DNA from: a virus | Lineage: Duplodnaviria; Caudoviricetes | DNA length: 41,374 nt | Direction: 5' to 3' (one strand) | Virus record (IMG/VR): IMGVR_UViG_3300046772_000048 | Location: 1-41,374 of that record | Shown here: one piece after another, positions 15,359 to 29,746 of the stretch | Position numbering within the stretch: position 1 is the stretch's first letter | How the letters are laid out: every line of letters starts with the position of its first letter | Translations under genes and position numbers: made by a program | Notes under the pieces: generated by a model | Seen by the model: the letters and a program-made list of their open reading frames with translations, nothing else | Databases searched by the model: none | What the model was told of the DNA's origin: nothing

Positions 15359-15380
15359 CCCCCTTAGATACGCAGGTTCG

Positions 15381-15412
15381 GGGGGTGGGTTGAGTGTCCT
15401 TCTCCCACCCCC
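15381..15412 (+). other. Hairpin with anti-RBS loop
   Basis: GGGGGTGGG/CCCACCCCC stem, loop TTGAGTGTCCTTCT. Confidence 0.65.
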
Positions 15413-15493
15413 TTCCCCCAACTTGACAAAAGGACATAAAAATGGAATACTATGGGTATTGGTGGATTGGAAGCCACTAATAGAAAAGGGAAA

Positions 15494-17284
15494 ATGATGG
15501 AACATTTAGTAAGTGGTGAGACTAAGTTTGAGGCTACTCCTAGAGAGTGGCTGAAAGTTGGTAGAGAAGTAGCAACGCTCACAAACAGATTAGCGTTGCG
15601 TGATGACATTATTGCGTATGTAGGAAATGGCGCAGGTGGCGAAGCCCCTGCTCGCTTCAATCCTGCGCTCGCAGAAGTTGAAGTAAATGTAAATAAAGTT
15701 TTTGGTGAAGGTGTAAATCCTGATTTCGTAGGAGACATAACACTTCGCAAAACACAATACGAGTATCCAATGGCAACAGGTGCGATTTCGCACGAAGCCT
15801 TCCACGCTCGCTTCTCATTATGGTCTATGCCAAATGCTCACGCAGAGTTGAAGAAAGATGAGTATGAGGCTCTAGTGTTGTTAGAAGAAGGTCGCATTGA
15901 GTATCAAGGCGTTCAATCAAACTTTCGTTCTCGCGTATTCCTACGCTCTAGTGCGTTGGAGTTAGCGATTGGAGACGCAAGAGAAGCATTTGATAAGAAG
16001 CAACCAACACAAGCAATCGCACACTTGATTGGTCTGGTACACGCTCGCGTTATCGCAGGTGTGTTAGATGAAGATGAAGTAGCAGACATTTATGAGTGGG
16101 TTCAAGAACAGATTGGTTTAGAAAATGTAGAAGCCTTCTGCGACATTATTCGTCCTTTCCAAACTCACGCAAACCACAAAGACGCAACAGAACTTTATCC
16201 ACTAGCAAAAGCGTGGGCAGAGTTAGTTCGTAAGATTATGAACGAACGCGGTGAGCAGGAAAATCCTGAAGGTGGTTGCGGTATGCCTCTACCAAAAGAG
16301 ATGGTTGAGGAAATCCTTGAGAAGATGAGTGAAGCAGGTGTCGCAGTTGAAATCGCTAACTATGGTGATTTAGCAGACCAAGAGCAGGGCGAAGATTACA
16401 AAGAACAAGCAGAAGCAAAACACAACGAAGCCAAAGAACAGGCAGAGAACAAAGAAGTTGCGAGCAAAGTCTTTGACAAATCAACAGGTCCCGGAACAAC
16501 TAAGACACTTAGCAGATTAGTTGAGCAGAGAGAAGCAACTCCACAAGAGCGTTCTGCTTCGGTAATTATTTCTCGCTTACTTGAAAAAGCAAAGTATCGT
16601 GAGCGAGATGAAATGATTATTGCGAGCGCAACTCCTCCGGGAAAACTTCGCACGAAAGCGATTATTCAGAATAAGGCACTCCGCGCTCGCGGTGTGTATA
16701 AGGCAGAAAATCCTTTCCGCAAAACAGTTCGCAAGCACACAGACGAACCAACACTTACAGTTGGAATTATGTGCGACATTTCAGGTTCAATGGGTTCTGC
16801 TATGAAGCCAATGGCGACAACTGCGTGGGTTATGAGTGAAGCAACTCGGCGCATACAAGGTAAGTGCGCTATGGTCTATTACGGAAATGATGTGTTCCCA
16901 ACACTAAAGGTTGGACAGAAACTAGAACAGGTAAGTGTTTATACTGCTAGTGATGGAACTGAAAAGTTCTACAAAGCATTTCAAGCAATAGATGGCGCAC
17001 TCAATCTACTTCACGGAAATGGTGCGAGATTGTTAGTTATTGTTTCTGATGGAGAATACACTTCAGATGAAACACGATTAGCAAAAGAGATTATCAAGAA
17101 GTGCGAAAAAGCAGGTGTTGGCGTTCTATGGTTGCCATTTGATAGTGGCTTCAGAGCGCGAGAACTTGGACAAGGTTATGCGAAAGTTGTTTCAGAGATT
17201 ACTGACCCTGTTCAAGCAAGCGAAGTTATTGGTCGCTCTGCTATGGAAGTAATGACGAGAGTTGGACAGAGGGCAGTTGCCTAA
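15494..17284 (+). CDS. VWA-domain protein (CobT-like) with N-terminal HExxH motif
   Basis: HEAFH, EEGRIE, acidic linker, MIDAS DISGS, VSDG; start moved to ATG 15494 behind AGAAAAGGG. Confidence 0.85.
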   Translation: MMEHLVSGETKFEATPREWLKVGREVATLTNRLALRDDIIAYVGNGAGGEAPARFNPALAEVEVNVNKVFGEGVNPDFVGDITLRKTQYEYPMATGAISHEAFHARFSLWSMPNAHAELKKDEYEALVLLEEGRIEYQGVQSNFRSRVFLRSSALELAIGDAREAFDKKQPTQAIAHLIGLVHARVIAGVLDEDEVADIYEWVQEQIGLENVEAFCDIIRPFQTHANHKDATELYPLAKAWAELVRKIMNERGEQENPEGGCGMPLPKEMVEEILEKMSEAGVAVEIANYGDLADQEQGEDYKEQAEAKHNEAKEQAENKEVASKVFDKSTGPGTTKTLSRLVEQREATPQERSASVIISRLLEKAKYRERDEMIIASATPPGKLRTKAIIQNKALRARGVYKAENPFRKTVRKHTDEPTLTVGIMCDISGSMGSAMKPMATTAWVMSEATRRIQGKCAMVYYGNDVFPTLKVGQKLEQVSVYTASDGTEKFYKAFQAIDGALNLLHGNGARLLVIVSDGEYTSDETRLAKEIIKKCEKAGVGVLWLPFDSGFRARELGQGYAKVVSEITDPVQASEVIGRSAMEVMTRVGQRAVA

Positions 17285-17295
17285 TGTTCTAACAG

Positions 17296-17382
17296 GTGTT
17301 GGCTCGGTGATAGGCGTAGGAGTGTCCTTCCAAGCACAAAAAACCTATTCCTTCATCTCTCACCACAGAGCCGAGCCAACAC
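17296..17382 (+). other. Structured 3'-UTR RNA with anti-RBS segment
   Basis: 12-bp perfect stem GTGTTGGCTCGG/CCGAGCCAACAC enclosing GAGTGTCCTTCC. Confidence 0.65.
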
Positions 17383-17407
17383 ATCTAAAAAGTAAAAGGG
17401 GAAACAA

Positions 17408-17851
17408 ATGACGACAACAGACGAAGAAGTAAAAATAACTTATCACTTGGGGTTTGACCCGCACCCAAACCAACAGGACGCAATCTTCTATACAGGTCTG
17501 GGTTGTGTCGCAACAGTTGATTACAAAGGTTTTCAAGTTGATGTTTATTGTGATGGCGAGACAAGAGCAAATCTTTTAGACGCACCACAAGGAGAAGTTG
17601 TTTCTAGTTTGTTTTCGCCAACAGATTTCATTGACGCTGGTATAGATACAGATGATGCTCTTGAAATGGCGAACAACCAAGAACTTCTTGATTGGGTAAA
17701 TAACTCTTGGTTTGATTTGTATTGCTATGGCGAACACCTAGACGCGGTTGAACACGAACTAGATGAGATACTCAAAGTTGCTGAAGTCTATGTAAGAGAC
17801 AGGGCGCACTCTGAAAAAATCATAAATGGAGAACTTGACAATTTAGATTGA
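17408..17851 (+). CDS. Hypothetical acidic protein
   Basis: AAAGGGG RBS; W.NN.WF motif. Confidence 0.8.
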   Translation: MTTTDEEVKITYHLGFDPHPNQQDAIFYTGLGCVATVDYKGFQVDVYCDGETRANLLDAPQGEVVSSLFSPTDFIDAGIDTDDALEMANNQELLDWVNNSWFDLYCYGEHLDAVEHELDEILKVAEVYVRDRAHSEKIINGELDNLD

Positions 17852-17863
17852 AACCTTTATACT
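17835..17863 (+). promoter_or_regulatory. Promoter overlapping upstream stop codon
   Basis: TTGACA-17-TATACT. Confidence 0.8.
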
Positions 17864-17893
17864 AAAGAAAAGAGAGGAAGGGAAAAAGTAAAA

Positions 17894-18406
17894 ATGCACG
17901 TTTGCCAAATAATGTTGGTTGAAGCAGAGGACGGCGCGGACGCTATCTCTGAAGTCAAAAGTTACATAACTTTTTCGGAAGAGGCGTATCCAACTTGGTC
18001 TGATTGGCACGAAGTCGGTGGCAGGTGGGACGGATTGTTTGACGGCTGGGAAGCAGAACGAAATGCTCTCTGCTATACCGAGAACCCATTACTTGCTGAA
18101 GACATAATCAAACAGTTCGCTAAAGGTCGGCAAGTAGAAATGAACCGATACTTAGCGGAGGTAACGGCAGAGGACTTTGACCTAGCCAAAATGGTTGAGA
18201 ACTATAACCCTGAAGACTATGACTACGGCATTGGTATGAAGGCTTGGACTTTGGCACGGCTAGGAAAACTTCTAGCAAACGATTGGACTTCAGATACGGG
18301 CGTCTTTGACTTGAAGGAAGGCTCGGCAAATCTTCGCCACTTCAGAGACCGGCTCGCCCTTGAACCGAACAAACAATTTTTAGTTCCTGTTGATTTCCAC
18401 TTCTAA
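17894..18406 (+). CDS. Phage hypothetical protein
   Basis: MH..., WSDW..VGGRW.G, C-terminal VPVDFHF. Confidence 0.8.
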   Translation: MHVCQIMLVEAEDGADAISEVKSYITFSEEAYPTWSDWHEVGGRWDGLFDGWEAERNALCYTENPLLAEDIIKQFAKGRQVEMNRYLAEVTAEDFDLAKMVENYNPEDYDYGIGMKAWTLARLGKLLANDWTSDTGVFDLKEGSANLRHFRDRLALEPNKQFLVPVDFHF

Positions 18407-18430
18407 CGGCAAGGAAAGGAAAAAGTAAAA

Positions 18431-18595
18431 ATGATTGTGTGTAAGAAATGTGGCTGGGAGATACGGCAAGATTTCGGTATGTGGCTAGACCAATACGAAG
18501 GGCTAGTCTGCGATTTCGTTGGTGATGTTCCAAGACCGCATAGACCGCGTATTGAAATGCGAACTCCGAACAACTCGGAACTCGCTGTCGCCTAA
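18431..18595 (+). CDS. Small Cys/His protein, 54 aa (not in ORF track)
   Basis: GAAAGG RBS plus 11-mer; CKKC...C...H. Confidence 0.7.
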   Translation: MIVCKKCGWEIRQDFGMWLDQYEGLVCDFVGDVPRPHRPRIEMRTPNNSELAVA

Positions 18596-18616
18596 GAGAG
18601 GAAGCAAAAAGTAAAA

Positions 18617-18847
18617 ATGAAAGTCCAAGATTTACTAGAGCAGTTGAAAGCATACGAACCTGAAACCGAACTCATTGTCGCTTATTGGGATAAAGAGACG
18701 ATTGAAAGTTATGGTGCGCCAACTATGAACGAAGACCAATGGCAACAAGTTGTGGAAGATTACGAAGACGGAGAGTGGCATTGGCAAGGTTCTGCCGGTG
18801 ATGACTTCGTTGAAATCGCAGAGAAAGTGATTGCTACTGATGAGTAA
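18617..18847 (+). CDS. Hypothetical acidic protein
   Basis: MKVQDLLEQLKAYEP; 11-mer directly before ATG. Confidence 0.75.
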   Translation: MKVQDLLEQLKAYEPETELIVAYWDKETIESYGAPTMNEDQWQQVVEDYEDGEWHWQGSAGDDFVEIAEKVIATDE

Positions 18848-19007
18848 CAAACGCTGGAGAGCAACTTTCATTTCTCACTTTGGACAGGACATAGAAGCAG
18901 AGACCCTAAGGGAAGCAGAGGCTAAAGCCCTTGCGTGGCTACAAGAAGAGTATGGATACGACCTTGCGAAAGCCACAGAGTTTGAGGTAGAGCCTACTGA
19001 CGAGTAA
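18840..19007 (+). CDS. Hypothetical protein, 55 aa (not in ORF track)
   Basis: MSNKRWRATF...IEAETLREAEAKA; overlaps the end of the previous gene. Confidence 0.7.
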   Translation: MSNKRWRATFISHFGQDIEAETLREAEAKALAWLQEEYGYDLAKATEFEVEPTDE

Positions 19008-19014
19008 TAAACTA

Positions 19015-19080
19015 TGTGATGTAAAACACATAGGCAAATGCTTGTTTGGATTTGCTTTTCGGGAAGACTTCGTTTATTAT
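19015..19080 (+). promoter_or_regulatory. CRP-like box plus promoter
   Basis: TGTGATGTAAAACACA (19015-19030); TTGCTT-17-TATTAT (19052-19080). Confidence 0.6.
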
Positions 19081-19156
19081 TCGTGTTAGTTAGTGAGCAA
19101 GGCTCTCAAACTATTGGAGTGAAAAGGTTTCTCTCCTAAATGACGAAAGGACGCTC

Positions 19157-19600
19157 GTGTCTCCAAAAAAGACAGTAGTGGTTGAAGTTTCAACTACTAA
19201 GGTGCTTGATAGCACACCTGCGGAAGCAAAGAAGGCTAAGCAAGCCCTTGAACTTCTCGCAAGCGCAAAGCGCACAAAAGCCCTAGCAGAGAAGGCGTAT
19301 GAGGAAGCGCAAGCAGAACTCTACACACTTCTTGGCTACAAAAAGGTTGGCTCTTCTTGGATTGGTATTGCCACAGAAGGCACAATCGCTGGTGTTCCAG
19401 TTGTAGTAATCGGAACACAAACTCGTGAGAACCTCAACAAAGAGGAACTTCTCAAAGCAAATCCACATCTTGTTGATGTGTTCGCTGAACACACCACAGA
19501 CAAAATCGTTCAAGTGATGAAAACTCCACAACACAAGAACGAAGCAAGCCTTGACGAGGCAGTTGCCACACTACTTGCGCTAACAGGAGCAAGTAAGTAA
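19157..19600 (+). CDS. Hypothetical protein
   Basis: GAAAGGACGCTC RBS, GTG start, own promoter and terminator. Confidence 0.8.
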   Translation: MSPKKTVVVEVSTTKVLDSTPAEAKKAKQALELLASAKRTKALAEKAYEEAQAELYTLLGYKKVGSSWIGIATEGTIAGVPVVVIGTQTRENLNKEELLKANPHLVDVFAEHTTDKIVQVMKTPQHKNEASLDEAVATLLALTGASK

Positions 19601-19612
19601 TTATCTAAAGTT

Positions 19613-19645
19613 GAAAGCCCCCGCAGGTGTTGCGGGGGTTTTCTT
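19613..19645 (+). terminator. Intrinsic terminator
   Basis: GCCCCCGCA-ggtgt-TGCGGGGGT followed by T-rich tail. Confidence 0.85.
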
Positions 19646-19662
19646 CATAGAGAAAAGGAACT

Positions 19663-20061
19663 ATGGAAAAAAGAAGACCAATTAGTTTTTCTAAACTTGA
19701 TAAGGTAGTAAGAACAGGCTTACACCAATACGAACCTATCGCAACTGATAACAACACAACTGAAGATGGCGAAATCCTAATTACCAAAGCAACTCGCTGG
19801 ATACCAATGTGTGAGTTAGCAAAAAGTAAAAAAGATAGAGACAGGGGTCTTGTTCTTTTTGTTTGGGAGATAGACGCCATACGAGAAGCCATTGAGAACT
19901 TCTATGAAAAAGATGTTGCTCAACAATTTATGAAGTCTAAGGATTGCCACGAGTGTTTGGCTCTATGTTTCAGGGAACACCTAGAGATGTTAGATGTTAT
20001 GCCCTTGCGGGAGTTGTTCCCATCTGAAGAAGATGACGACACGGAAGAAGACACGATTTGA
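19663..20061 (+). CDS. Hypothetical protein
   Basis: GAAAAGGA RBS; 132 aa. Confidence 0.75.
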   Translation: MEKRRPISFSKLDKVVRTGLHQYEPIATDNNTTEDGEILITKATRWIPMCELAKSKKDRDRGLVLFVWEIDAIREAIENFYEKDVAQQFMKSKDCHECLALCFREHLEMLDVMPLRELFPSEEDDDTEEDTI

Positions 20062-20086
20062 CTTTTAGAAATCTATCATCTATACT
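20050..20086 (+). promoter_or_regulatory. Promoter with GACAC box
   Basis: GACACGAT then TTGACT-17-TATACT. Confidence 0.8.
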
Positions 20087-20110
20087 TGGGGTTATAGAGA
20101 AAGGGGAAAT

Positions 20111-21178
20111 GTGAAGCCAACAGATGTATTAGACATACAGGCATACTTCAAGGGGAAGTGCCTAGATAGTCGCTGGGAAGATTTACTACAAACCTATGTA
20201 GAGATTTCGGTTGGAAAGAAATACCTTTACACAGAAGCAGAGTGGGCTAAGTCTGACCACAAGAAGGCTATTGGCGTTTATCGCAGAGACATTATTGAAA
20301 CAGGAAAGAACGCGGAGTGCTTCTTCGTCAAAGATGAAATGTCTGACTTAGTTACTTTTGCTTCTAATAAATTAGATGAGACAGATGAGATAGACATAAG
20401 TCTAATTCCTGCTGATAGAGGATTTGCTTACTTTGAGAAGCCACTTGCGGTTCAAGATGTTCGCGGAAGAGAAATGCTTATCAACCTAATGCTTTGGAAA
20501 AAAGTGTTTGGTGAAGATGGAAAGTTAGGCGTTTCAATCTCTTACTGGAATGACGCTTATAGAACTCCTGATGATTTGGCAAAAGTTATTCTTGCCGAGC
20601 CTGATGATGTAACTAGACTTCTAGGTCGCTTTCATTGGATTAGTTGTAAGAGTGTCTTTCAACACGAAAAGATAGGCAAAGAAGAAATCAACGCTAATGA
20701 AAAAGACATGGACGCTATACGCGCTTTGACTTTCAAGCCCGGTGGAAAAGAACTTCTTTCGGAAGAAGAGTGGGAAGATTACAAAAACAATAAACTAACT
20801 CCTGCTACTAACACGACAAGACTTATGTGGGCTTACTTCTTGATTATGTCGCAGACACTTACAGAGGTATCAAAGCACCAAGCAGAGAACAGAGCGCAAC
20901 GCAAACGCATTGAGCGAGAAAACTTGCCGACAGAGTTTGTAGTTGTTCAGTTCCGCAAGCGTAGGTATGTAAATGCGGAAACAGATGAGACCCACGAAGC
21001 AAGTGCGATTGAGTGGTCGCATAGGTGGATTGTTGGTGGTCATTGGAGATGGCAACCATACAAAGACCCAATTAGTAAGGGAACTATCAAGAAGCGTATT
21101 TGGATTAGTCCTTATGTAAAAGGTCCGGAAGACAAGCCACTTATCGCCAAGAGCAAGGTGTTCGTGTTGGCGAAGTAA
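20111..21178 (+). CDS. Phage hypothetical protein
   Basis: 355 aa; C-terminal HRWIVGGHWRWQPY...IWISPYVKGP motif. Confidence 0.8.
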   Translation: MKPTDVLDIQAYFKGKCLDSRWEDLLQTYVEISVGKKYLYTEAEWAKSDHKKAIGVYRRDIIETGKNAECFFVKDEMSDLVTFASNKLDETDEIDISLIPADRGFAYFEKPLAVQDVRGREMLINLMLWKKVFGEDGKLGVSISYWNDAYRTPDDLAKVILAEPDDVTRLLGRFHWISCKSVFQHEKIGKEEINANEKDMDAIRALTFKPGGKELLSEEEWEDYKNNKLTPATNTTRLMWAYFLIMSQTLTEVSKHQAENRAQRKRIERENLPTEFVVVQFRKRRYVNAETDETHEASAIEWSHRWIVGGHWRWQPYKDPISKGTIKKRIWISPYVKGPEDKPLIAKSKVFVLAK

Positions 21179-21186
21179 AAACAGAT

Positions 21187-21215
21187 TTGACTTCTAAGGG
21201 GAAGTCCTGTATAAT
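21187..21215 (+). promoter_or_regulatory. Promoter
   Basis: TTGACT-17-TATAAT. Confidence 0.85.
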
Positions 21216-21245
21216 AAAGACAAGGGAAAAGAAAGGGGTTAGCAA

Positions 21246-21524
21246 ATGGCTAACGATTTAGTAGAAGTACAAGTAACTGAAGAAGAATTATCTTTGCTCA
21301 CTATGTCGGTGGGTATGTTCATTACTTTGATGGACGAAAAGATTGAACGCCGACACAAGAGGGGCGAGCGCGGTCAAGAGTTTGACTTGGAAGAGATGTT
21401 CTTCTTGATGGATAAGAAGTTCGGTGCTATGAACTTGTGGCGCAAGATGTTGGTGTCTGCTGGTTGCGACCCTGACCTTATTGCTGAACACATTGAAAAA
21501 GCCACAGAGGAAGAAGAGTTCTGA
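21246..21524 (+). CDS. Hypothetical protein
   Basis: GAAAGGGG RBS. Confidence 0.75.
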   Translation: MANDLVEVQVTEEELSLLTMSVGMFITLMDEKIERRHKRGERGQEFDLEEMFFLMDKKFGAMNLWRKMLVSAGCDPDLIAEHIEKATEEEEF

Positions 21525-21739
21525 TGGCTGAACACCATTACATAATCAAGTTTGATGATGAGACAGGAACTTGGTCTCACGACACAGATAGCGAAGAAGT
21601 GCGGTTTCCTGATGGAACTATTTGGGACGAAGCAGAGAACGAGTGGAAGTATGCCTATCAAGGTGATGGCGAGTTCTATCGTAATGCTGATGTCTATGAT
21701 GATTATTTATCCCACATTATCTCCACTATGGATTGCTAA
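21524..21739 (+). CDS. Hypothetical acidic protein
   Basis: TGATG overlap; RFPDGTIWD. Confidence 0.75.
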   Translation: MAEHHYIIKFDDETGTWSHDTDSEEVRFPDGTIWDEAENEWKYAYQGDGEFYRNADVYDDYLSHIISTMDC

Positions 21740-21751
21740 GGAAAAAGTAAA

Positions 21752-21985
21752 ATGGACGAGATAAATCTTTCACGAACAGTAATGTTTGTTGGTAATTACT
21801 TTACCCTTATGACCACAGTTGTTCTTGATGAAACACTACGACAAGAAGACGAGAGTGATGAAGACTTTGCGGTGAGAACTGCGAGTGTCTTTATGAAGGA
21901 ATACTATGGCTTTGATGTTGCGTCTTTCTCTAACGACATTGGTGTAGTAGATGAAGATGGAGATGATGATGAAGACTATGAGTAA
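21752..21985 (+). CDS. Hypothetical acidic protein
   Basis: AAGG plus 11-mer before ATG. Confidence 0.75.
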   Translation: MDEINLSRTVMFVGNYFTLMTTVVLDETLRQEDESDEDFAVRTASVFMKEYYGFDVASFSNDIGVVDEDGDDDEDYE

Positions 21986-22319: not shown

Positions 22320-22336
22320 ACCTAGAAAAACAGTAT

Positions 22337-22435
22337 TGTCGCTATCTACCCCCCTTTCGGATAGCGACATAGAGCACGGGTAATACCCTTTCCCCTGTCG
22401 CTCCGCCACTCCCTTCACTCCTGTCTGAAGGGAGT
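22337..22435 (+). ncRNA. Candidate small RNA: three tandem hairpins with C/U-rich loops
   Basis: Stems TGTCGCTATC/GATAGCGACA (loop TACCCCCCTTTCG), GAGCACGGG/CCTGTCGCTC (loop TAATACCCTTTC), ACTCCCTTCA/TGAAGGGAGT (loop CTCCTGTC). Confidence 0.6.
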
Positions 22436-22502
22436 TGGTGTGCTTTATGGCTTGACTTCCTACGAACTACTGATAGTGTTTAGGCACGCTAACCTTCTTC
22501 GT

Positions 22503-22748: not shown

Positions 22749-22780
22749 GCAAAAAGTAAAAACCGACAGGGAGCAGTACG

Positions 22781-23353
22781 ATGACCACAATTGCAGCCGT
22801 TCAGGGCGAGAACTGGGCTGTACTTGCATACGATAGTCGTGTTACTGAAGACAACAAGATTTATTCTTTACCGAAGGACAACGGCAAGGTAATAAAAAAT
22901 GGCGAGTATCTCATTGGCGTAGCAGGAGACATGAGAGCCGTCAATCTAATGGCGTATGTGTTCAAGCCACCTACCATTACTCCATCGGCTTATGGCGTGA
23001 GGTTGGACAAGTTTATGACTATGAACTTCATACCTGAAATGAAAAAATGTTTTGAGGACAACTCATACTCAAAAGACGGCGAACACGAAAGCCAAATCAT
23101 TGTCTCTATCAACGGTACTATCTACGAGATAGGCGAGGACTTCTCTTGGGCTAGAGACGAGTCCGGAGTTTATACAATCGGGTCTGGCGGAGGATACGCA
23201 CAAGGAGCGTTACTTGCTACGCTTGAAACCCGCAAACGAACTCTTGGAACGGCAAAGACATTAGCAAGACAAGCAGTAACAATCGCTTCACGCCTTGACC
23301 CGAACTCTTCACCACCGGTCTATGTGATGGTTCAACACTTCGGTGTGGCTTAG
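22781..23353 (+). CDS. Proteasome beta-subunit / HslV-like Ntn hydrolase
   Basis: N-terminal (M)TT nucleophile, DSRVT, conserved Lys, IGVAG, IGSGG, D..S. Confidence 0.85.
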   Translation: MTTIAAVQGENWAVLAYDSRVTEDNKIYSLPKDNGKVIKNGEYLIGVAGDMRAVNLMAYVFKPPTITPSAYGVRLDKFMTMNFIPEMKKCFEDNSYSKDGEHESQIIVSINGTIYEIGEDFSWARDESGVYTIGSGGGYAQGALLATLETRKRTLGTAKTLARQAVTIASRLDPNSSPPVYVMVQHFGVA

Positions 23354-23447
23354 CAAAAAGTAAAAACTCTCCGGCACGCAACAAGCCGGTCCTCTGCAAG
23401 TCAAAAAGTTATTCTGAAGTCGCTATGCGTACGCCTATTTGCTGAAC

Positions 23448-23484
23448 GACACGACTTGACTTTTCTTTCTAGGGTTGCTATACT
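23448..23484 (+). promoter_or_regulatory. Promoter with GACAC box
   Basis: GACACGAC then TTGACT-17-TATACT. Confidence 0.85.
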
Positions 23485-23491
23485 TCAGTTA

Positions 23492-23570
23492 TTCAGTAGG
23501 GGGGCAGTCGCTGGACACCTGAACGACCTGAAACCTAGGGGGTCGGAAACAATACGACGCCCCTACTGAA
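23492..23570 (+). ncRNA. Candidate structured 5' leader / small RNA
   Basis: 11-bp closing stem TTCAGTAGGGG/CCCCTACTGAA starting at the predicted TSS, with two GTCG and two CGAC segments inside. Confidence 0.5.
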
Positions 23571-23588
23571 CCTAAAGAAAGGGAACCT

Positions 23589-23822
23589 ATGGACACAATC
23601 TCCATGACTTACCACTTGCGTGGTAATTTTTATCCACCCCTACCACTTGACTACGCGGAACCCGCTATCAAGGCGTGGGAGTTTTATCAGGCAGAGGACT
23701 ATGACGCAGTAATTACTTTACCTGCGGACATAGAGCCACACCCCGCTTGCGCTCGCAAGACTGAAGCAGGTTGGGAGTTATCTGCCAGCGACCTAGTGCG
23801 GATACTTCGCCTAGATAGGTAA
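23589..23822 (+). CDS. Hypothetical protein
   Basis: GAAAGGG RBS; HL.GN.YPP.P motif. Confidence 0.8.
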   Translation: MDTISMTYHLRGNFYPPLPLDYAEPAIKAWEFYQAEDYDAVITLPADIEPHPACARKTEAGWELSASDLVRILRLDR

Positions 23823-23832
23823 TTTATTTGGA

Positions 23833-23862
23833 GAAGCCCCGGCTGAAGAGCCGGGGTTTTTT
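23833..23862 (+). terminator. Intrinsic terminator
   Basis: GCCCCGGCT-gaag-AGCCGGGGT then T run. Confidence 0.85.
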
Positions 23863-23901
23863 CATGTACAAGTTATTCTGATGTCCGGCTCAGAAGAACG
23901 A

Positions 23902-23957
23902 GTTTTTACTTTTTGGCACCGGGCTCAGGACCCGGCTGTTGAAAGAACGAACAACTT
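23902..23957. repeat. 56-bp composite spacer element, second copy at 29104-29159
   Basis: GTTTTTACTTTTTGG-N15-CCGGCTGTTG-N7-GAACAACTT identical in blocks and spacing. Confidence 0.8.
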
Positions 23958-24002
23958 GCGGAAGATGTGCGAGAGGGTTCTTGTTGGGATAGGATTTAGA
24001 AA

Positions 24003-24067
24003 TGTGATACAAAACACAATGCGGATTTCCTATTTCAACTTGACTTCCCTGCCAAAACTGGTAAAAT
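24003..24067 (+). promoter_or_regulatory. CRP-like box plus promoter
   Basis: TGTGATACAAAACACA (24003-24018); TTGACT-16-TAAAAT (24040-24067). Confidence 0.7.
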
Positions 24068-24098
24068 ACTCTTATCAACTTCAGAAAGGGGAAAAACA

Positions 24099-24338
24099 AT
24101 GAAGTGGATACTCGTCAAGAAGTCTGACGGAGAACGCGGAAATGCCGGTCTCAAGAAGATTTATCAGGTTATCGTTGAAGATAACAAAGTTATTACACTT
24201 TGGGGTAAGGCTGAAGAAGTCGCTCCACAAGCAAAGCAGGTAAAGAGTTTTGCTTATCCATTCCTTGCTAAGGCATACGCTAACGACAAGGTTCAATCTA
24301 AACTTACAAGAGGCTACGAAGTGGTGCTCGTAGCCTAA
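24099..24338 (+). CDS. WGR-domain-like protein
   Basis: KIYQV.V....V...WGK....Q....F...A.....K..SKLTRGY. Confidence 0.7.
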   Translation: MKWILVKKSDGERGNAGLKKIYQVIVEDNKVITLWGKAEEVAPQAKQVKSFAYPFLAKAYANDKVQSKLTRGYEVVLVA

Positions 24339-24350
24339 TTCGGTGGGCAA

Positions 24351-24394
24351 GAAAGGCTCCCTCGTCTTGGTTGGTGCGGGGGAGTTTTTCTTTT
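24351..24394 (+). terminator. Intrinsic terminator
   Basis: GGCTCCCTCG...CGGGGGAGTT then T run. Confidence 0.7.
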
Positions 24395-24402
24395 CCTAAT
24401 AC

Positions 24403-24431
24403 TTGACTTTTATTAGACGCGGTGTTATACT
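24403..24431 (+). promoter_or_regulatory. Promoter
   Basis: TTGACT-17-TATACT. Confidence 0.85.
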
Positions 24432-24454
24432 TAGAGAAAGAAAGGGGGGACACT

Positions 24455-24823
24455 ATGAAAGCAGTCATAATCACAACAAATGGTGAGAAGCAAGTGGTTG
24501 AATTTACTAACGAAACTTCTTACAAGACTTTATCTGACGCGGTTGGCGGAATGATAGAGTGCGTTGGAATTGACGAGAACACGGATATGTGGGTAAATGA
24601 AAATGGCATAGCAGAGGGCTTGCCACTAAACCTACACGGGTCTGCGATTTATTCGGAGACTTGGAAAGCAGGTAATCCTATTCTCGGCAATGTAATCATT
24701 ACTGGCGGGACAGATGAAGAAGGCTACACGCTAGGACTGACTGACGAGCAGGTAGAGAAGTGGTTGGCATACAACTCACAGGTAATTCCAACTGCCTACT
24801 TATTCGGTGCGCTATACAACTAA
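24455..24823 (+). CDS. DUF3846 domain protein
   Basis: L..AVGG.IE.V, MWVNENG...LP.N, I.GNVII.G; start at ATG 24455 behind GAAAGGGGGG. Confidence 0.8.
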   Translation: MKAVIITTNGEKQVVEFTNETSYKTLSDAVGGMIECVGIDENTDMWVNENGIAEGLPLNLHGSAIYSETWKAGNPILGNVIITGGTDEEGYTLGLTDEQVEKWLAYNSQVIPTAYLFGALYN

Positions 24824-24840
24824 ATAGATTTCCCACAGAG

Positions 24841-24869
24841 AAGGCGCGGCTAATCCCCGCGTCTTTTTT
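24841..24869 (+). terminator. Intrinsic terminator
   Basis: GGCGCGG/CCGCGTC stem then TTTTTT. Confidence 0.75.
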
Positions 24870-24968
24870 GTTGTTCGCAGATTCCGGAGGTACCCCTGAC
24901 CAAAAAGTAAAAACTCTCGTTTTGCGGTCTGAAGGATTTGGCGGTGCTGGACATAAAAATAACTTTGC

Positions 24969-25006
24969 GACACGACTTGACTTTCTAGGAGAGATGATGT
25001 TATACT
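24969..25006 (+). promoter_or_regulatory. Promoter with GACAC box
   Basis: GACACGAC then TTGACT-18-TATACT. Confidence 0.8.
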
Positions 25007-25036
25007 TAGACAACAAGCCAACGAAAGGGAAAAGAA

Positions 25037-25177
25037 ATGGCAAAGTATGTGGTTCTATGTGAGGCAGACGAGTGTGAGACAGAGAACGAAGATTTTGAAG
25101 ATGATGGTTCAACCTATTGGTTTACCTGCGTAAAGTGCGGATACGACAACGAGGTGGTTCACTCGCCGTGGAAATAA
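25037..25177 (+). CDS. Small zinc-ribbon protein, 46 aa (not in ORF track)
   Basis: GAAAGGG RBS; CEADEC...CVKC. Confidence 0.75.
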   Translation: MAKYVVLCEADECETENEDFEDDGSTYWFTCVKCGYDNEVVHSPWK

Positions 25178-25278
25178 CAACTAAAGCCAAGTGCGTAGAG
25201 TGCGGTAGGGTCTTTGACCTACTCAATGAGGTAGATGCGGAAGAGTGGGGTTATGGACACGACTGCGAAGTTTTGTAA
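25168..25278 (+). CDS. Small Cys/His protein, 36 aa (not in ORF track)
   Basis: GAGGTGG RBS, GTG start; KCVECGRVFDLLNEVDAEEWGYGHDCE. Confidence 0.7.
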   Translation: MEITTKAKCVECGRVFDLLNEVDAEEWGYGHDCEVL

Positions 25279-25423
25279 GTCTTGCTTGAATACTCACGCG
25301 GTAGAGGAAGATGCTTGCTATTGCGTGAGATGTTCAGAGAACTTTGATAGTGGTTGTATGAACGAGATAAATGGAGAACCCGTTTGTTTCCAATGCGACC
25401 CGACTTTCATACCAAAAGAGTAA
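25253..25423 (+). CDS. Small Cys-rich protein
   Basis: CKSC, CYCVRC, CFQC; start at ATG 25253. Confidence 0.6.
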   Translation: MDTTAKFCKSCLNTHAVEEDACYCVRCSENFDSGCMNEINGEPVCFQCDPTFIPKE

Positions 25424-25424
25424 C

Positions 25425-25453
25425 TTGACTTTCTAATCCCACTATGTTATACT
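25425..25453 (+). promoter_or_regulatory. Promoter
   Basis: TTGACT-17-TATACT. Confidence 0.85.
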
Positions 25454-25484
25454 TAGGGTATTAGCAGAAAGGGGGTGAAGATAA

Positions 25485-25709
25485 ATGCTAAGTTTCGGAG
25501 ATTTCGTAAATGGTCTCAATGATGATGCTTGCGCAATGTGTGGTCGCAAGATAGTAAGTAAGAACCCTTGGTTGGTTCATCTATCTATCGCAGGAGCGAT
25601 ACTACACCCAGCAAGTGATGCGGATAGGGGGACTATCTCGCAGGGGTTCTGGCAGGTAGGAAGTGAGTGCGCCAAGAAGTTTGACCCTGCGGTGCTTGTG
25701 AAAAACTAA
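25485..25709 (+). CDS. Small Cys-containing protein
   Basis: CAMCGRK...VGSECAKK; GAAAGGGGGTGA RBS. Confidence 0.8.
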   Translation: MLSFGDFVNGLNDDACAMCGRKIVSKNPWLVHLSIAGAILHPASDADRGTISQGFWQVGSECAKKFDPAVLVKN

Positions 25710-25721
25710 ATAGAATTCAAG

Positions 25722-25754
25722 GAAGCCCCCGCGAAAGCGGGGGTTTTCTTTTTT
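25722..25754 (+). terminator. Intrinsic terminator
   Basis: GCCCCCGC-GAAA-GCGGGGGT then T run. Confidence 0.9.
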
Positions 25755-25881
25755 GTGGGAGGTGGCTTACCAAAAAGTAAAAATCACCAAATGCCGGCTC
25801 CAGATAAAAACAACTTAAAATTGTTTGTAGTGAGCAAAAACCTTAGCAAAAAATGTGTAAAGACAATTCGGACATTTTGCC

Positions 25882-25935
25882 TGTGAGATACATCTCTTTT
25901 TAGGATTTGACTTTTATGCGGGTAGGTGTTATGCT
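25882..25935 (+). promoter_or_regulatory. Degenerate CRP-like box plus promoter
   Basis: TGTGAGATACATCTCT (25882-25897); TTGACT-17-TATGCT (25907-25935). Confidence 0.7.
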
Positions 25936-25956
25936 TAGGTCAAGAAAGGGGAAATT

Positions 25957-26166
25957 ATGTTCAAGTATGTATTCAAGCCACACCCTATTGAGTGGGCTTT
26001 CTATAAGAAGGCTTTGTGGGTGGTTGGTGCGGTAATTGTTATTACTGCCCTAATCTCCGCTAACGCTTTGAGTTTCTTATTGTTCTTTGGTGCGGGTTGG
26101 TATGCCCAGAAAGAGTATGCCAAGCGTCAGCCTAAGAAACGCAAGCCACGCAAGAAGAAGGCTTGA
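25957..26166 (+). CDS. Small membrane protein with basic tail
   Basis: Hydrophobic hairpin then KRQPKKRKPRKKKA. Confidence 0.8.
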   Translation: MFKYVFKPHPIEWAFYKKALWVVGAVIVITALISANALSFLLFFGAGWYAQKEYAKRQPKKRKPRKKKA

Positions 26167-26167
26167 T

Positions 26168-26196
26168 TTGACTTTTCTAAATGAAAGTGCTATACT
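26168..26196 (+). promoter_or_regulatory. Promoter (leaderless transcript)
   Basis: TTGACT-17-TATACT, ATG 6 nt downstream. Confidence 0.85.
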
Positions 26197-26202
26197 TCAG
26201 TT

Positions 26203-26364
26203 ATGAAGTATTTACCAGATAGCGCAGTAGTCGGAACATACAAGCGTATGCGCCGTAAGCCTAAGGCTACCTATAAGTCAAGGGCGCAGTATCAGAGGGA
26301 AGCAGACCTCTGGAACGCAATTGCCTATGCGGTATTAGGATTTGCTAAAAAGAAACAAAACTGA
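26203..26364 (+). CDS. Small basic protein, 53 aa, leaderless (not in ORF track)
   Basis: MKYLPDSAVVGTYKRMRR...; paralog at 32168-32332. Confidence 0.8.
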   Translation: MKYLPDSAVVGTYKRMRRKPKATYKSRAQYQREADLWNAIAYAVLGFAKKKQN

Positions 26365-26376
26365 TAAAATACAGAA

Positions 26377-26922
26377 ATGGAGGAAAAAATGACGACAAAG
26401 ACACAATGGACAGAAGTAGATGAAGACGACTTAGGTATTGCTCCGCAATACGAAGCGATTGCTTACCCAACAGATTTGTGGAACGAAATCTTGCCAAACC
26501 TTTTTCAAGGTGGAACAGATGACGAAGACACAATTTGGGAGCGCAAGCGTGAAGAACCACAGATTACTAAAGACTTCTTTGATACAGTAATTACTGCCTA
26601 CCAATACGCAAACCCTGCGGATTGGCTAGTAAAAGAAATTCGCTATCCGTTTTACGATAGCCCAAGTATGAGTGGTATTGACTTCAAGGAGTTATTCCAA
26701 ATTGTGCGGATTGCTCACGAAGATTGGAAGTCAGGTAAGCGAGTTCTTATTCGTTGCCAAGCAGGACTAAATCGTTCAGGGCTAGTTATGGCATTAGTGC
26801 TAATGCGAGAAGGTTATTCTGCGGAAGAAGCGATTTGCCTAATCCGAGATAAGCGAAGCCAATACGCACTATTCAACTCAACCTTTGAGAAGTGGTTGCT
26901 CTCGCTCCCTAAGGCGGAGTAA
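26377..26922 (+). CDS. Dual-specificity / Cys-based protein phosphatase family protein
   Basis: EILPNLFQGG, VLIRCQAGLNRSG (CX5R), AI.LIR.KR; true start may be ATG 26389. Confidence 0.88.
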   Translation: MEEKMTTKTQWTEVDEDDLGIAPQYEAIAYPTDLWNEILPNLFQGGTDDEDTIWERKREEPQITKDFFDTVITAYQYANPADWLVKEIRYPFYDSPSMSGIDFKELFQIVRIAHEDWKSGKRVLIRCQAGLNRSGLVMALVLMREGYSAEEAICLIRDKRSQYALFNSTFEKWLLSLPKAE

Positions 26923-27125
26923 TGGAAGCAACCACTTGCTCCAAGTGCGACGCAGACGCAAAGTGGATAGATTGCCCTTGCGGTGATGAGATGTGCTTTG
27001 CGGTGCGTTGCTATTGGAGTGAGTGCGCCTATGTAGAGTGGGGTTGCGAGGAAGAAGGGGCTAACCAAAAAGTAAAAGACCAGCCCATCTATCTCTCTAC
27101 TTGCGACACGCCGAAAGTCAGGTAA
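26922..27125 (+). CDS. Small Cys-rich protein
   Basis: CSKC, CPC, several further Cys; TAATG overlap. Confidence 0.65.
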   Translation: MEATTCSKCDADAKWIDCPCGDEMCFAVRCYWSECAYVEWGCEEEGANQKVKDQPIYLSTCDTPKVR

Positions 27126-27126
27126 C

Positions 27127-27155
27127 TTGAAAAAAGTCAGGGAAGTTGCTATTAT
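27127..27155 (+). promoter_or_regulatory. Promoter
   Basis: TTGAAA-17-TATTAT; GCGACACGCC at 27103. Confidence 0.65.
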
Positions 27156-27203
27156 TACTTCATTGACTTAGAAGAAGTCAAACTTAGAGAAAGGGCTAAG
27201 AAA

Positions 27204-27395
27204 ATGGCAGTAGTAATGAAGATGGATAAGAAGTTCATACAACGCAGACGAGTTGCGTTTGTTATCGCTCTTGCGCTCGCAGGTGCGCTTGTGTGGGGAT
27301 TAGTTCAGGTATCAGGAAACCTATGGTGGGTTGGTGGCGAAGAAGGCTACTGCTGGGGTCAAATGGTTGAGTGCTATTTCGGGAAGGGGAAGTAA
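27204..27395 (+). CDS. Small membrane protein
   Basis: RRRVA + TM helix + LWWVG..GYCWG.M.EC. Confidence 0.8.
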   Translation: MAVVMKMDKKFIQRRRVAFVIALALAGALVWGLVQVSGNLWWVGGEEGYCWGQMVECYFGKGK

Positions 27396-27580
27396 TGAAT
27401 AAAGGAAAGTTTGGGCAAGACCTTGCCAAGATTTCAGATAACGAGTTTGCGGAGTTCTTATTGAAGTTCGCATACATGACGCCAGAACAAATGGAAGAAC
27501 GAGACAACTTACCAACAAAAGAAGCGCGGAGGGAGTTTATGAGAAATCTTCCGCTTCCAGCACTAGGAGGGAAAAAGTAA
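27395..27580 (+). CDS. Hypothetical protein
   Basis: GAAGGGG RBS, TAATG overlap. Confidence 0.7.
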   Translation: MNKGKFGQDLAKISDNEFAEFLLKFAYMTPEQMEERDNLPTKEARREFMRNLPLPALGGKK

Positions 27581-27582
27581 AA

Positions 27583-27750
27583 ATGGTTCTAGATACAGGA
27601 ACAATGTTTGCCATCATTATCGCGCTCGCAGGTTCGTGCTTCGTAATGGTAGTTTCCATCAACGCCTACGGGAAGTTGATGCGGGAGAACAAACAACTAC
27701 GCCAAGAGTTGGTTGAGTTGGAGTGGAAGAAAATCAAGGAGGTGAACTAA
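27583..27750 (+). CDS. Small membrane protein, 55 aa (not in ORF track)
   Basis: MVLDTGTMFAIIIALAGSCFVM + coiled coil; GGAGG plus 11-mer before ATG. Confidence 0.75.
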   Translation: MVLDTGTMFAIIIALAGSCFVMVVSINAYGKLMRENKQLRQELVELEWKKIKEVN

Positions 27751-27927
27751 ATGGAAACATCACAGATTATTGCGGACGCAGAGTGTGATTTCAAATGCCA
27801 GTTTGAGTGGATTGAAGTCTCATCAAACTTCTTCAATGCGTCGGTTTATACGCCAGCATTGTTAGCAGGTATTGCGGGTTATGTTATTTATCGCATTATC
27901 AAGAAAGTAAAAGGTAATGTCCTATGA
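27751..27927 (+). CDS. Small membrane protein, 58 aa (not in ORF track)
   Basis: AAGGAGGTGA RBS; C-terminal TM segment. Confidence 0.75.
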   Translation: METSQIIADAECDFKCQFEWIEVSSNFFNASVYTPALLAGIAGYVIYRIIKKVKGNVL

Positions 27928-28394
27928 CGAACAAGCCCACTTGGGATAAGTTTGAGGAAGCAACTGCGGTTGTAAATGGGCATAAGGTAGACCTTGACCC
28001 TAATCAAACTATTTGGAAAAACAAGTTCTACACAGTTATCAAGCACATACTTGAGCCTGAACTTGGAGACAAGAGTGGTATCCATCTTTCTATTCGCCAC
28101 AACGAAAGAAAGGCGATTAGAGATTGGAGACACTTCCAACGCATCAAGAACGAACTTGCGGGTGCTGAAAGAGAAGCAGTAGAAATCTTCCCACCTGAAA
28201 GTCAGTTAGTTGATACATCAAATCAGTATCACCTTTGGGTTCTGCCTGAAGGCACAACATCTTTCTTCACTTGGAACGAAGGGCGTCATGTAGTCAATGA
28301 CCCACAAGACCCAGAGAACAAAGAGTGGTTGCGGTCAAAAGGTTTAGACCCAGAGGTAATTATGGGAGCAAAACAACGACCTTATGAGGAGTGA
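27924..28394 (+). CDS. DUF7694-like phage protein
   Basis: HLSI....DWR..QRIKNEL.G.E.EAVE.FP.ES.LVD..NQYHLW. Confidence 0.7.
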   Translation: MTNKPTWDKFEEATAVVNGHKVDLDPNQTIWKNKFYTVIKHILEPELGDKSGIHLSIRHNERKAIRDWRHFQRIKNELAGAEREAVEIFPPESQLVDTSNQYHLWVLPEGTTSFFTWNEGRHVVNDPQDPENKEWLRSKGLDPEVIMGAKQRPYEE

Positions 28395-28603
28395 GGGTGA
28401 GTTCAACAAAAAGTAAAAGAATTGCCGATGACGCCTCCCGTCTCTATGCGGAAGGGTTATCTATTGAGAGTGTGGCTAGCGAACTAAAGGTTTCGTATCG
28501 TTGCGCTCGCAAAGCAATTAGAAGTCGCGGGACACCTCTCCGCGACCCATCAGCCCGCGTCAAAGGACGCACAAGCCCAAAAAGGAAGAAGTCAGCCCAA
28601 TGA
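28391..28603 (+). CDS. Helix-turn-helix DNA-binding protein
   Basis: LYAEGLSIESVASELKVSYRCARKAI..RG..LR. Confidence 0.75.
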   Translation: MRVSSTKSKRIADDASRLYAEGLSIESVASELKVSYRCARKAIRSRGTPLRDPSARVKGRTSPKRKKSAQ

Positions 28604-28752
28604 ATAATCTCAATGTAGTTTGGACTGCCGTAGGAGCGTTAGTCTTCGGACTTGCGTCTTTCCTCGCAGCGTGGCAGAATTCAGTTCCTTGGACTATCGC
28701 CCTAGGATTCTCGGCTTTGACGAGCGCGACGCTCGCAAGCAGGGAACGCTAG
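28600..28752 (+). CDS. Small two-helix membrane protein, 50 aa (not in ORF track)
   Basis: MNNLNVVWTAVGALVFGLASFLAAW...; ATGA overlap. Confidence 0.7.
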   Translation: MNNLNVVWTAVGALVFGLASFLAAWQNSVPWTIALGFSALTSATLASRER

Positions 28753-28766
28753 ACAAAGTTCAAGGC

Positions 28767-28809
28767 AAAGCCCTCCGCATACCTTCCTCTTGCGGGGGGC
28801 TTCTTCTTG
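28767..28809 (+). terminator. Intrinsic terminator with anti-RBS loop
   Basis: AAGCCCTCCGCA/TGCGGGGGGCTT stem, loop TACCTTCCTCT. Confidence 0.75.
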
Positions 28810-28818
28810 TGTCTTGAC

Positions 28819-28847
28819 TTGACTTATTTCTTGATTAGTGTTATAGT
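28819..28847 (+). promoter_or_regulatory. Promoter
   Basis: TTGACT-17-TATAGT. Confidence 0.85.
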
Positions 28848-28876
28848 ATGCCTAATCAAAAAGAAAGGAGCCACCA

Positions 28877-29056
28877 ATGGCAATCTCCCGCCCACAATAC
28901 CCAACCTGCTTTACCTGCCGTCGTGAGTTCACCCACGCTTGTGATTCTCAAGGCGCATACTGCGAACACCACAACTTCACAGGTTATGTCTCCGAGTGCG
29001 ACACCTGCCGTGTTTCACAAGCGCGAAAGTTCCTGGAAGCCGTAACAACTAAATAA
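28877..29056 (+). CDS. Small Cys/His-rich protein, 59 aa (not in ORF track)
   Basis: AGAAAGGAG RBS; CFTC..H.C..CEHH..CDTC. Confidence 0.75.
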   Translation: MAISRPQYPTCFTCRREFTHACDSQGAYCEHHNFTGYVSECDTCRVSQARKFLEAVTTK

Positions 29057-29065
29057 TTTTTGGAA

Positions 29066-29091
29066 GAAGCCCCGCTTCGGCGGGGTTTTTT
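29066..29091 (+). terminator. Intrinsic terminator
   Basis: GCCCCGC-TTCG-GCGGGGT then T run. Confidence 0.9.
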
Positions 29092-29176
29092 CTTGCGCTC
29101 GCAGTTTTTACTTTTTGGTATCCAATCCTCCAGCCGGCTGTTGGACATCAGAACAACTTTCCTTTGCGTGTCTGGT

Positions 29177-29205
29177 TTGACTTTTATCGTGGCTAGTAGT
29201 ATTGT
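29177..29205 (+). promoter_or_regulatory. Promoter
   Basis: TTGACT-17-TATTGT. Confidence 0.75.
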
Positions 29206-29228
29206 TATGTCTTGAAAGGGGGTCTTCA

Positions 29229-29690
29229 ATGACCACACAACAATTAGTTCTCTTCGGTGAGAACCCTGCTCCCGCACCTGCGGTTCCTGCGCCTGTCGCA
29301 AATGTTGCCCCAAAGTTCAATTGGAGGGAACTTTATGAGGCACTTTCTAAACTTCCTAAATCTAAATACGCCATACCAACAGATGAACTTATGGGTGATT
29401 ATATGGTTCAACCTGTTGATAATGACCTTGTATTCGTTGAAATCCGCGAGTTCAAGAAGACTACATACCTTCGCCGTCTGATTGGCTCATACGGAGGGTT
29501 CTCTCGTATCAAGCCAGCACCCGAAGATACGCTTGCTTTTGTGCGTGTTTTGCTTGGCGACCCATACAAGTATGCCAAGTTGTTCGCTGTTCACTACGCT
29601 TGCTGTGCCAAGTGCGGTGCTGAACTCACAGATGAAACAAGTCGTGAGTTAGGTCTTGGTCCGGTCTGCCGACAGGCTTTCGGGAAGTAA
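29229..29690 (+). CDS. DUF6011 domain protein
   Basis: C-terminal CAKCGAELTDETSRELGLGPVC; start at ATG 29229 behind GAAAGGGGG. Confidence 0.8.
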   Translation: MTTQQLVLFGENPAPAPAVPAPVANVAPKFNWRELYEALSKLPKSKYAIPTDELMGDYMVQPVDNDLVFVEIREFKKTTYLRRLIGSYGGFSRIKPAPEDTLAFVRVLLGDPYKYAKLFAVHYACCAKCGAELTDETSRELGLGPVCRQAFGK

Positions 29691-29696
29691 GACACG

Positions 29697-29746
29697 AGTC
29701 AGATAAAGTGGCGACTCTCACCCCCAAAATCGCCACTTGTCTGACT
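29697..29746 (+). other. 3'-UTR hairpin with anti-RBS loop
   Basis: AGTCAGAT..AAGTGGCGA / TCGCCACTT-GTCTGACT stem, loop CTCTCACCCCCAAAA. Confidence 0.6.

Follow-up and report, generated by a model that had tools for sequence, protein, structure and literature searches.

The window analyzed here is the whole of a 41-kb virus fragment (41,374 nucleotides; IMG/VR record IMGVR_UViG_3300046772_000048; Duplodnaviria, Caudoviricetes). Two of its predicted transcription units, one encoding orf154 and an AAA+ ATPase and the other a vWA-domain protein, end in tails with 7-13-nt stretches complementary to the front of the same unit, with which they covary across relatives. Comparison of these sequences suggests that the ATPase and vWA tails probably fold back on their own 5' ends, where they would damp initiation and speed decay of the message. 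The original prediction for this DNA was wider: the C/U-rich loops of seven hairpins behind stop codons (15381, 17296, 22337, 22372, 22408, 28768, and 29697) were proposed to form a distributed network antisense to Shine-Dalgarno (SD) sequences. Covariation in relatives argues for selection on pairing with ribosome-binding sites (RBSs) at hairpins 15381 and 17296 and at a post-stop segment, and not at the other five hairpins.

The ATPase, which we label MoxR-like, is followed by two pairing elements (Table 1). A search for the ATPase gave 54 loci, and the statistics were calculated on 23 non-redundant loci (the window and 34 loci, with 12 near-identical ones dropped). The stem of the hairpin behind the ATPase varies in sequence among relatives with its base pairs retained. 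In one large clade, the loop complements the spacer and start codon of the first gene, and both sides change together. The window has loop AGTGTCCTT with AAGGACACT (the 9-nt partner of loop positions 15393-15401 lies at 13809-13817), L007, L014, and L019 have CATTGGGTGTC with GACACCCAATG, and L010 has CATGGGTATC with GATACCCATG. Where the first-gene RBS is changed, the partner is shifted up the leader, to -27 in L022 and L024 (9 nt) and to -36 in L026 and L028 (8 nt). The second element, at 15359-15368 in the window and missing from the original prediction, follows the stop codon directly and matches the RBS of the ATPase or of the first gene. Own matches were longer than other matches in three comparisons: 6.91 versus 5.07 nt for the post-stop segment and the ATPase RBS, 6.43 versus 5.35 nt for the hairpin and the first-gene leader, and 6.91 versus 5.15 nt in the third comparison of the unit (n = 23, p ≤ 1e-4 for each). 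In the held-out G056, both predicted places are matched, the first-gene spacer over 9 nt and the ATPase RBS over 8 nt. In two cultured Microbacterium phages, the loop matches the leader of a distant orf154 homologue that precedes the ATPase gene; the match is 7 nt in A3Wally and takes in the entire 8-nt loop in Cece. Pairing of the loops with the downstream -35 region was rejected as a general rule; it fits L007, L011, L022, L024, and L026 and fails in L003, L006, L010, L027, L034, and L039. In L023, L032, L033, L052, and L053, an arm of the ATPase 3' hairpin holds the -35 hexamer of the next promoter, and the loop is long and A/T-rich.

For the vWA unit, 37 loci were examined, and 22 were kept after removal of two without a whole gene, one with a cut tail, and 12 near-identical ones. 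The match of the tail to its own start region was 8.18 nt compared to 5.83 nt for the start regions of others (permutation p = 1e-5). It reached at least 8 nt in 16 of the 22 loci, and the own region was the best or tied partner in 17. With one phage per 16-mer cluster and the held-out DSL-LC01 included (n = 19), the values were 8.37 and 5.89 nt (p = 1e-5). Three orientation controls were not significant for vWA, and direct repeats were not enriched (p = 0.37). At least 10 different matched words are scattered over a quick vWA tree, which argues against one inherited event. Matches of at least 8 nt fall in predicted unpaired parts, and the pairing segments have a mean predicted unpaired probability of mostly 0.7-1.0 versus about 0.45 for trailers. 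The SD itself lies within most of the vWA partners, and several clades have two contacts, one at the SD and one at a leader loop. The window has the latter, at a leader loop (15467-15473) that the original prediction did not include: CTTCCAA in the tail pairs with TTGGAAG in the loop of the leader hairpin. The corresponding pair in L001 is CTTCCGAA/TTCGGAAG. In DSL-LC01, the vWA loop is complementary to 13 nt of its own leader and to 9 nt of its own RBS.

Genes called by a simple script on 100 regions of 33 records and the window gave 1140 intergenic hairpins and 238 units, of which 188 were used once near-identical records and records with fewer than four units had been dropped. Own-unit matches of at least 8 nt numbered 28 versus 16.0 after permutation. 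The excess is confined to units of ATPase/vWA size (flagged by length), where 15 of 17 match the 5' end of their own transcription unit and 4.5 were expected. The other 171 units gave 13 self-matches versus 11.4 expected (p = 0.34), so self-pairing of all units was rejected and a distributed, genome-wide network is unsupported; the selected partners are the 5' ends of the tails' own units.

A fold-back of the ATPase and vWA tails would act as a built-in timer. The RBS of the nascent message would be free and ribosomes would load until the tail is made. The loop or post-stop linker of the completed tail would then pair with the SD, spacer, or leader, lowering initiation, exposing the message to decay, and capping the output of the ATPase/vWA pair, which is likely a chaperone couple. 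In the window, the vWA tail would contact the loop in its 5' leader instead of the SD, in a loop-loop kiss. The layout of promoters and hairpins is compatible with both sites lying on one transcript, with unit boundaries placed by promoter consensus, and we infer pairing within one molecule and a repressive outcome. The three cis pairs of the window have energies of -12.6 to -17.3 kcal/mol (RNAduplex). A preprint reports that an 8-mer anti-SD word at +467 reduced the half-life in Bacillus subtilis from 11.2 to 1.7 min (PMC12697547).

Several observations weigh against this fold-back. Short duplexes would have to bridge 1.0-1.8 kb, and the same preprint describes an anti-SD effect that weakens with distance (44% at >500 nt; PMC12697547). 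A block of initiation is less certain for those partners that lie 25-38 nt upstream of the start. The window vWA RBS itself has a match of only 5 nt, and vWA tail-own matches are absent from L035, L040, and L042. The ATPase hairpin loop has no first-gene partner in L003 and L027, a match of only 6 nt in DSL-LC01, and no leader match in Pumpernickel, Zooman, or any of three Gordonia phages. Three of nine orientation controls for the ATPase unit reached weak significance (p = 0.003-0.03) with effects near 0.4-0.5 nt, which indicates that composition contributes. The first mismatches beside the cores were G-U and A-C in a ratio of 4:21 for cognate and 61:141 for non-cognate pairs (Fisher p = 0.16); the G-U flanks give no support to RNA-strand pairing, in a test that is weak because the flanks often fall on stem-closing bases. 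A TGTCCCGCA-type loop is retained behind vWA in four cultured Microbacterium phages (L167 6929-, L168 6683-, L169 5692-, L170 5671-), and the 5' end of the gene holds no partner for it. Three of these four genes look leaderless, the promoter consensus ending about 6 nt before the ATG, and a partner search gave matches at background level. The fold-back model leaves these loops unexplained. The RNA runs are contigs, which do not show the ends of messages.

Table 1. Features of the two self-complementary units and of the other hairpins and their partners in the window
Feature	Position	Strand	Remarks
Predicted sigma-A-type promoter of the orf154-ATPase unit	13728..13757	+	Consensus scan
orf154 leader and RBS	13795..13817	+	Two AAGGACA copies; covaries with the loop in relatives
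orf154	13818..14282	+	First gene of unit; no Pfam/PHROG match; conserved upstream of ATPase
ATPase RBS	14278..14289	+	Partner of post-stop segment; 10 pairs, one bulge, -17.3 kcal/mol (RNAduplex)
AAA+ ATPase	14297..15358	+	Pfam AAA_5; PHROG 16448 and 249
Post-stop anti-RBS segment	15359..15368	+	Own 6.91 versus other 5.07 nt, n = 23, p = 5e-5
3' hairpin of the ATPase unit	15380..15413	+	No U-tract; 14-nt loop 15390-15403 antisense to orf154 start region
Predicted vWA gene promoter	15423..15451	+	Consensus scan
vWA 5' leader hairpin	15457..15482	+	Loop 15467-15473 complementary to 17327-17333; both sides changed together in L001
vWA-domain protein	15497..17284	+	Partner gene of ATPase; weak VWA_CoxE, below cut-off
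vWA 3' hairpin	17296..17382	+	17321-17333 complements vWA leader loop (7 nt) and orf154 RBS (9 nt)
RBS of first gene (21246) in unit ending with three-hairpin element	21231..21238	+	8-nt partner of loop 22337
Three-hairpin element at operon end	22337..22438	+	Loops 22348-22358 and 22381-22393 generic anti-SD; 22418-22425 no good partner
DUF3846 gene RBS	24440..24449	+	10-nt trans partner of loop 22337; 10 and 12 nt in two close relatives
Terminator-like hairpin	28767..28803	+	28778-28791 is the exact 14-nt complement of whiB RBS and AUG in close relative G001
Terminator-like hairpin, 15-nt loop	29697..29746	+	CACCCC core kept in close relatives

All seven hairpins of the original prediction fold (15380-15413, 17296-17382, 22337-22369, 22372-22403, 22406-22438, 28767-28803, and 29697-29746), and every loop/RBS complement it quoted is present. 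They stand just after stop codons except for 22372 and 22408, which belong to a single three-hairpin element and lie 50-90 nt past the stop, and they expose C/U-rich loops except for 17296, whose interior of about 60 nt is multi-part with no simple loop. Specific RBS matches were not borne out for 22408 and the 3' part of 17296, where the best matches of 6 and 7 nt are at chance level. U-rich tails follow 28768 and 29697, and the third hairpin of the 22337 element in relatives; no U-tract follows the hairpins at 15380 or 17296. Each loop was tested against the 74 start regions of the window, with shuffled loops and equal samples of other phages' start regions as controls. Only the 5' part of 17296 (p = 0.019) and 22337 (p = 0.032) exceeded shuffled loops (15381, p = 0.074; 22372, p = 0.61; 22408, p = 0.94; 28768, p = 0.13; 29697, p = 0.20). 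No loop exceeded other phages' start regions (p = 0.19 for 15381, 0.43 for 17296, 0.10 for 22337, 0.99 for 22372, 0.99 for 22408, 0.35 for 28768, and 0.37 for 29697). The window alone therefore shows no specific pairing, since its matches are no better than the G-rich RBSs of other phages give. This holds for single window matches and fails for the ATPase and vWA units across relatives. Loops are kept while stems change, the opposite of conserved stems with varying loops. The post-stop segment 11789-11800 (+), absent from the original prediction and kept in L005, is complementary to two promoter-proximal RBSs outside its own unit, over 11 nt to 12537-12547 and over 12 nt to 27183-27194.

A doubtful alternative to fold-back is that processing of the tails yields stable small RNAs (sRNAs) that act in trans on their own messages in the manner of OppZ/CarZ, on many early RBSs, or on phage whiB. 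Among 272 long loops, 237 lie outside the ATPase and vWA units, and anti-SD words occur in 80 of these compared to 62.9 after shuffling (p = 0.001; SD-sense words in 21), which favors action in trans, as do targeted words common to many leaders in one phage. The own-genome preference of these 237 loops is weak (p = 0.07 and 0.19), the units other than ATPase/vWA are without excess, no small RNA was seen, and no Rfam family was matched in the window, all of which count against it.

The three-hairpin element also fits action in trans. It was found in three variants in which the loops are kept and 4 of 36 pairs are compensated, and it ends in a U-tract in relatives. Loop 22337 has a complement of at least 7 nt in 20 of the 74 start regions. 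Broad anti-SD seeding of phage GAAAGGGG-type RBSs is the most likely function of loops 22337, 22372, and 29697, and a trans role for 22337/22372, as for 28768 at whiB, is a lead. No plus-strand promoter-like site was listed by the consensus scan between 21215 and 22579. A wide spread of the element was rejected; BLAST located it in 3 of 48 records, a strict pattern gave no match, and 7 of 11 matches to a loose pattern were an unrelated terminator. The partner of the 29697 loop drops to 7 nt in G001. In two close relatives, the terminator loop behind DUF3846 (24835-24864) is complementary to the RBS at 21235-21243, over 8 nt in G001; in the window this loop has one change.

The whiB gene lies outside the window and is about 78 kb from hairpin 28768 in G001. 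The 14-nt match is unique among 2538 start regions and was reached by none of 3000 shuffles, about 20 loop-genome pairs having been looked at before it was noticed. The loop is identical in all close homologues, and in G004 and G007, where the hairpin follows the same gene for a membrane protein, its ACCTTCC core is retained on replaced stems. The whiB site is retained in a whiB of 84% identity and carries one mismatch in whiB variants of 92% identity, the latter a point against pairing in trans; the G002 loop has a 10-nt match to its own whiB. Targeting of whiB as a family-wide rule was rejected because 24 other whiB start regions, several with uncertain starts, have own best matches of 6-9 nt; 2 of 26 whiB loci whose orientation was not settled were left out. 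The G004 and G007 loops reach 8-10 nt in 3 of 79 other whiB upstream regions, compared to 0.6-0.8% of the shorter pooled start regions; the loop-whiB matches of these two genomes sit on different contigs and were not counted as support. Hairpins with 28768-like loops in the unrelated contigs L243 and L251 were rejected as RBSs of opposite-strand genes, and two of eight metagenome matches to the loop were unrelated terminators. No second site for such loops was found in any of the four records of unrelated contigs. The 28768 loop may target whiB in trans, a lead from a single lineage. PMC13013590 describes phage WhiB proteins as binders of the primary sigma factor, so such control would matter. 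In G001 (87374-88607), a short whiB gene lies about 1 kb from a second whiB that has a long extension, and paired genes occur likewise in G002, G003, G018, G025, and G049-G051. We consider it unlikely that all these parts form one protein-free RNA circuit, in which the ATPase/vWA messages would silence themselves, a three-hairpin tail would damp GAAAGGGG-class early RBSs, and an early terminator loop would cover the whiB RBS and AUG about 78 kb away and so delay the next infection stage.

It is improbable that the 5'-3' contact stabilizes or recycles the message instead of repressing it, by shielding nuclease sites as in hbs or by bringing the stop codon beside the RBS, where terminating ribosomes would open the helix and re-initiate. 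Leader-loop partners away from the SD (window, L001, L022, L024, L052, and DSL-LC01), post-stop segments within reach of a terminating ribosome, and the hbs precedent as described in PMC5737220 point this way, but most vWA partners cover the SD, and SD occlusion cut expression in icaR and in the reporters described in PMC12697547. Inverted repeats acting in the DNA as recombination or protein-binding sites around gene modules would account for the lack of G-U enrichment in the flanks and for a modular region whose cassettes are skipped in related contigs. This explanation is very improbable, given matches that lie in predicted hairpin loops whose stems change with the pairs kept, sequences wholly different between phages, unlike a common protein site, and direct repeats without enrichment. 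Chance pyrimidine-purine matches suffice for single window matches, notably 22408 and 29697, but they cannot yield the own-versus-other excess of the ATPase/vWA units, by which chance was rejected as their origin, and RBSs of minus-strand mini-genes are unlikely because two of the seven loops have no downstream start, the others give inconsistent open reading frames of 2-104 codons, and no minus-strand promoter lies within 150 nt of any loop, which leaves this pair of explanations with a negligible share.

The source is a large, uncultured lake phage with a likely actinobacterial host. The closest annotated relative is DSL-LC01 (vWA 44%, ATPase 61%), for which an actinobacterial host is predicted in PMC10611076, followed by Microbacterium and Gordonia phages; whiB is present in 23 of 52 related records. 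The window encodes a class II ribonucleotide reductase and a portal. The block of short genes between them, which bears repeated TTGAC-N17-TATACT promoter-like sites in a consensus scan, would be the early region. Small genes include a pyrimidine-dimer glycosylase (9757-10218), an HslV-family peptidase (22781-23353), a dual-specificity phosphatase (26389-26922), and a lysozyme-like transglycosylase (29904-30506). Three freshwater RNA libraries contained 41-77% of sampled window words; these libraries are contigs that cover most of the region, and breaks near hairpins are uninformative. RNA runs with small shares of words were not used as evidence. Library contigs of relatives skip whole gene cassettes between short common words (window 28818-29177 and 18616-18840), which suggests modular gain and loss at promoter/terminator units. 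The 11-mer AAAAAGTAAAA has 28 plus-strand sites in 7554-40395 and four minus-strand sites (23904, 29106, 31317, and 32966). Its orientation tracks the direction of transcription, and it is mostly intergenic, immediately before the start codon at seven called genes. Copies number 26 in G006, 16 in G007, 12 in G045, and at most two in each of the other 40 records; G044 carries the reversed word instead (21+2 copies). It resembles a binding site or start-associated site specific to a clade. Neither an Rfam scan of the window at the gathering score nor a tRNA scan gave a match.

The contact extends to cultured Microbacterium phages and is hence testable. It would provide a phage with a protein-free means to time or cap early expression, and if the whiB lead is true, a terminator loop would control a phage transcription factor in trans. 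A full-text literature search, mostly without subscription papers, found no phage example of such tail-to-start pairing; a 3' untranslated region (UTR) review never mentions "phage", and a phage sRNA review has "UTR" once. Natural bacterial 5'-3' message contacts amount to a handful of single genes (icaR, hbs, and RNAIII) in the accounts of PMC7821165 and PMC12697547.

Known systems resemble the tails in different respects. A pyrimidine motif in the 3' UTR of Staphylococcus aureus icaR pairs with its own SD region, and the account of it leaves open cis versus trans action (PMC3868564). The likeness, a 3' motif complementary to the own start region, is found in the window for the ATPase unit and for vWA only at the leader loop. 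The long icaR 3' UTR and its roughly 40-nt complementarity cut by RNase III have no counterpart here, where the longest perfect complements are 7-13 nt. The elements here are instead phage-borne hairpin loops and post-stop linkers, often with two sites per message, that covary across the family. OppZ and CarZ of Vibrio cholerae are operon 3' ends that pair with their own start region in negative feedback; they are described as stable sRNAs processed by RNase E (PMC7398697), whereas the tails here are predicted from DNA. In hbs of B. subtilis, a 14-bp contact that joins the 5' UTR to the 3' UTR involves the leader, but it is described as guarding against RNase Y and not as blocking the SD (PMC5737220). 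Words of 8-12 nt hundreds of bases downstream pair with an RBS in vivo and lower translation and half-life in the synthetic reporters of PMC12697547, where the words are in coding sequence and selected against; here they are natural, apparently selected for, and 1-1.8 kb away. The actinobacterial 6C sRNA uses C-rich loops as chaperone-independent seeds (PMC6486639), and the 22337-22438 element is similar. That element, in three variants only, has C-rich loops on conserved stems; it differs from 6C in being phage-borne, placed at an operon end, built of three hairpins, with no promoter-like site directly upstream in the consensus scan, and without an Rfam match. The C4 antisense RNA of phages P1 and P7 has unpaired parts that pair close to an RBS belonging to the phage itself, and it is a discrete, processed RNA that controls immunity. 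No C4 match was obtained with Rfam in the window. The ATPase and vWA tails would work like icaR and OppZ/CarZ without the long duplex of icaR and as members of no Rfam family. Retention of the contact throughout the phage family, by many independent sequence solutions, is evolutionary evidence for selection on short long-range pairing.

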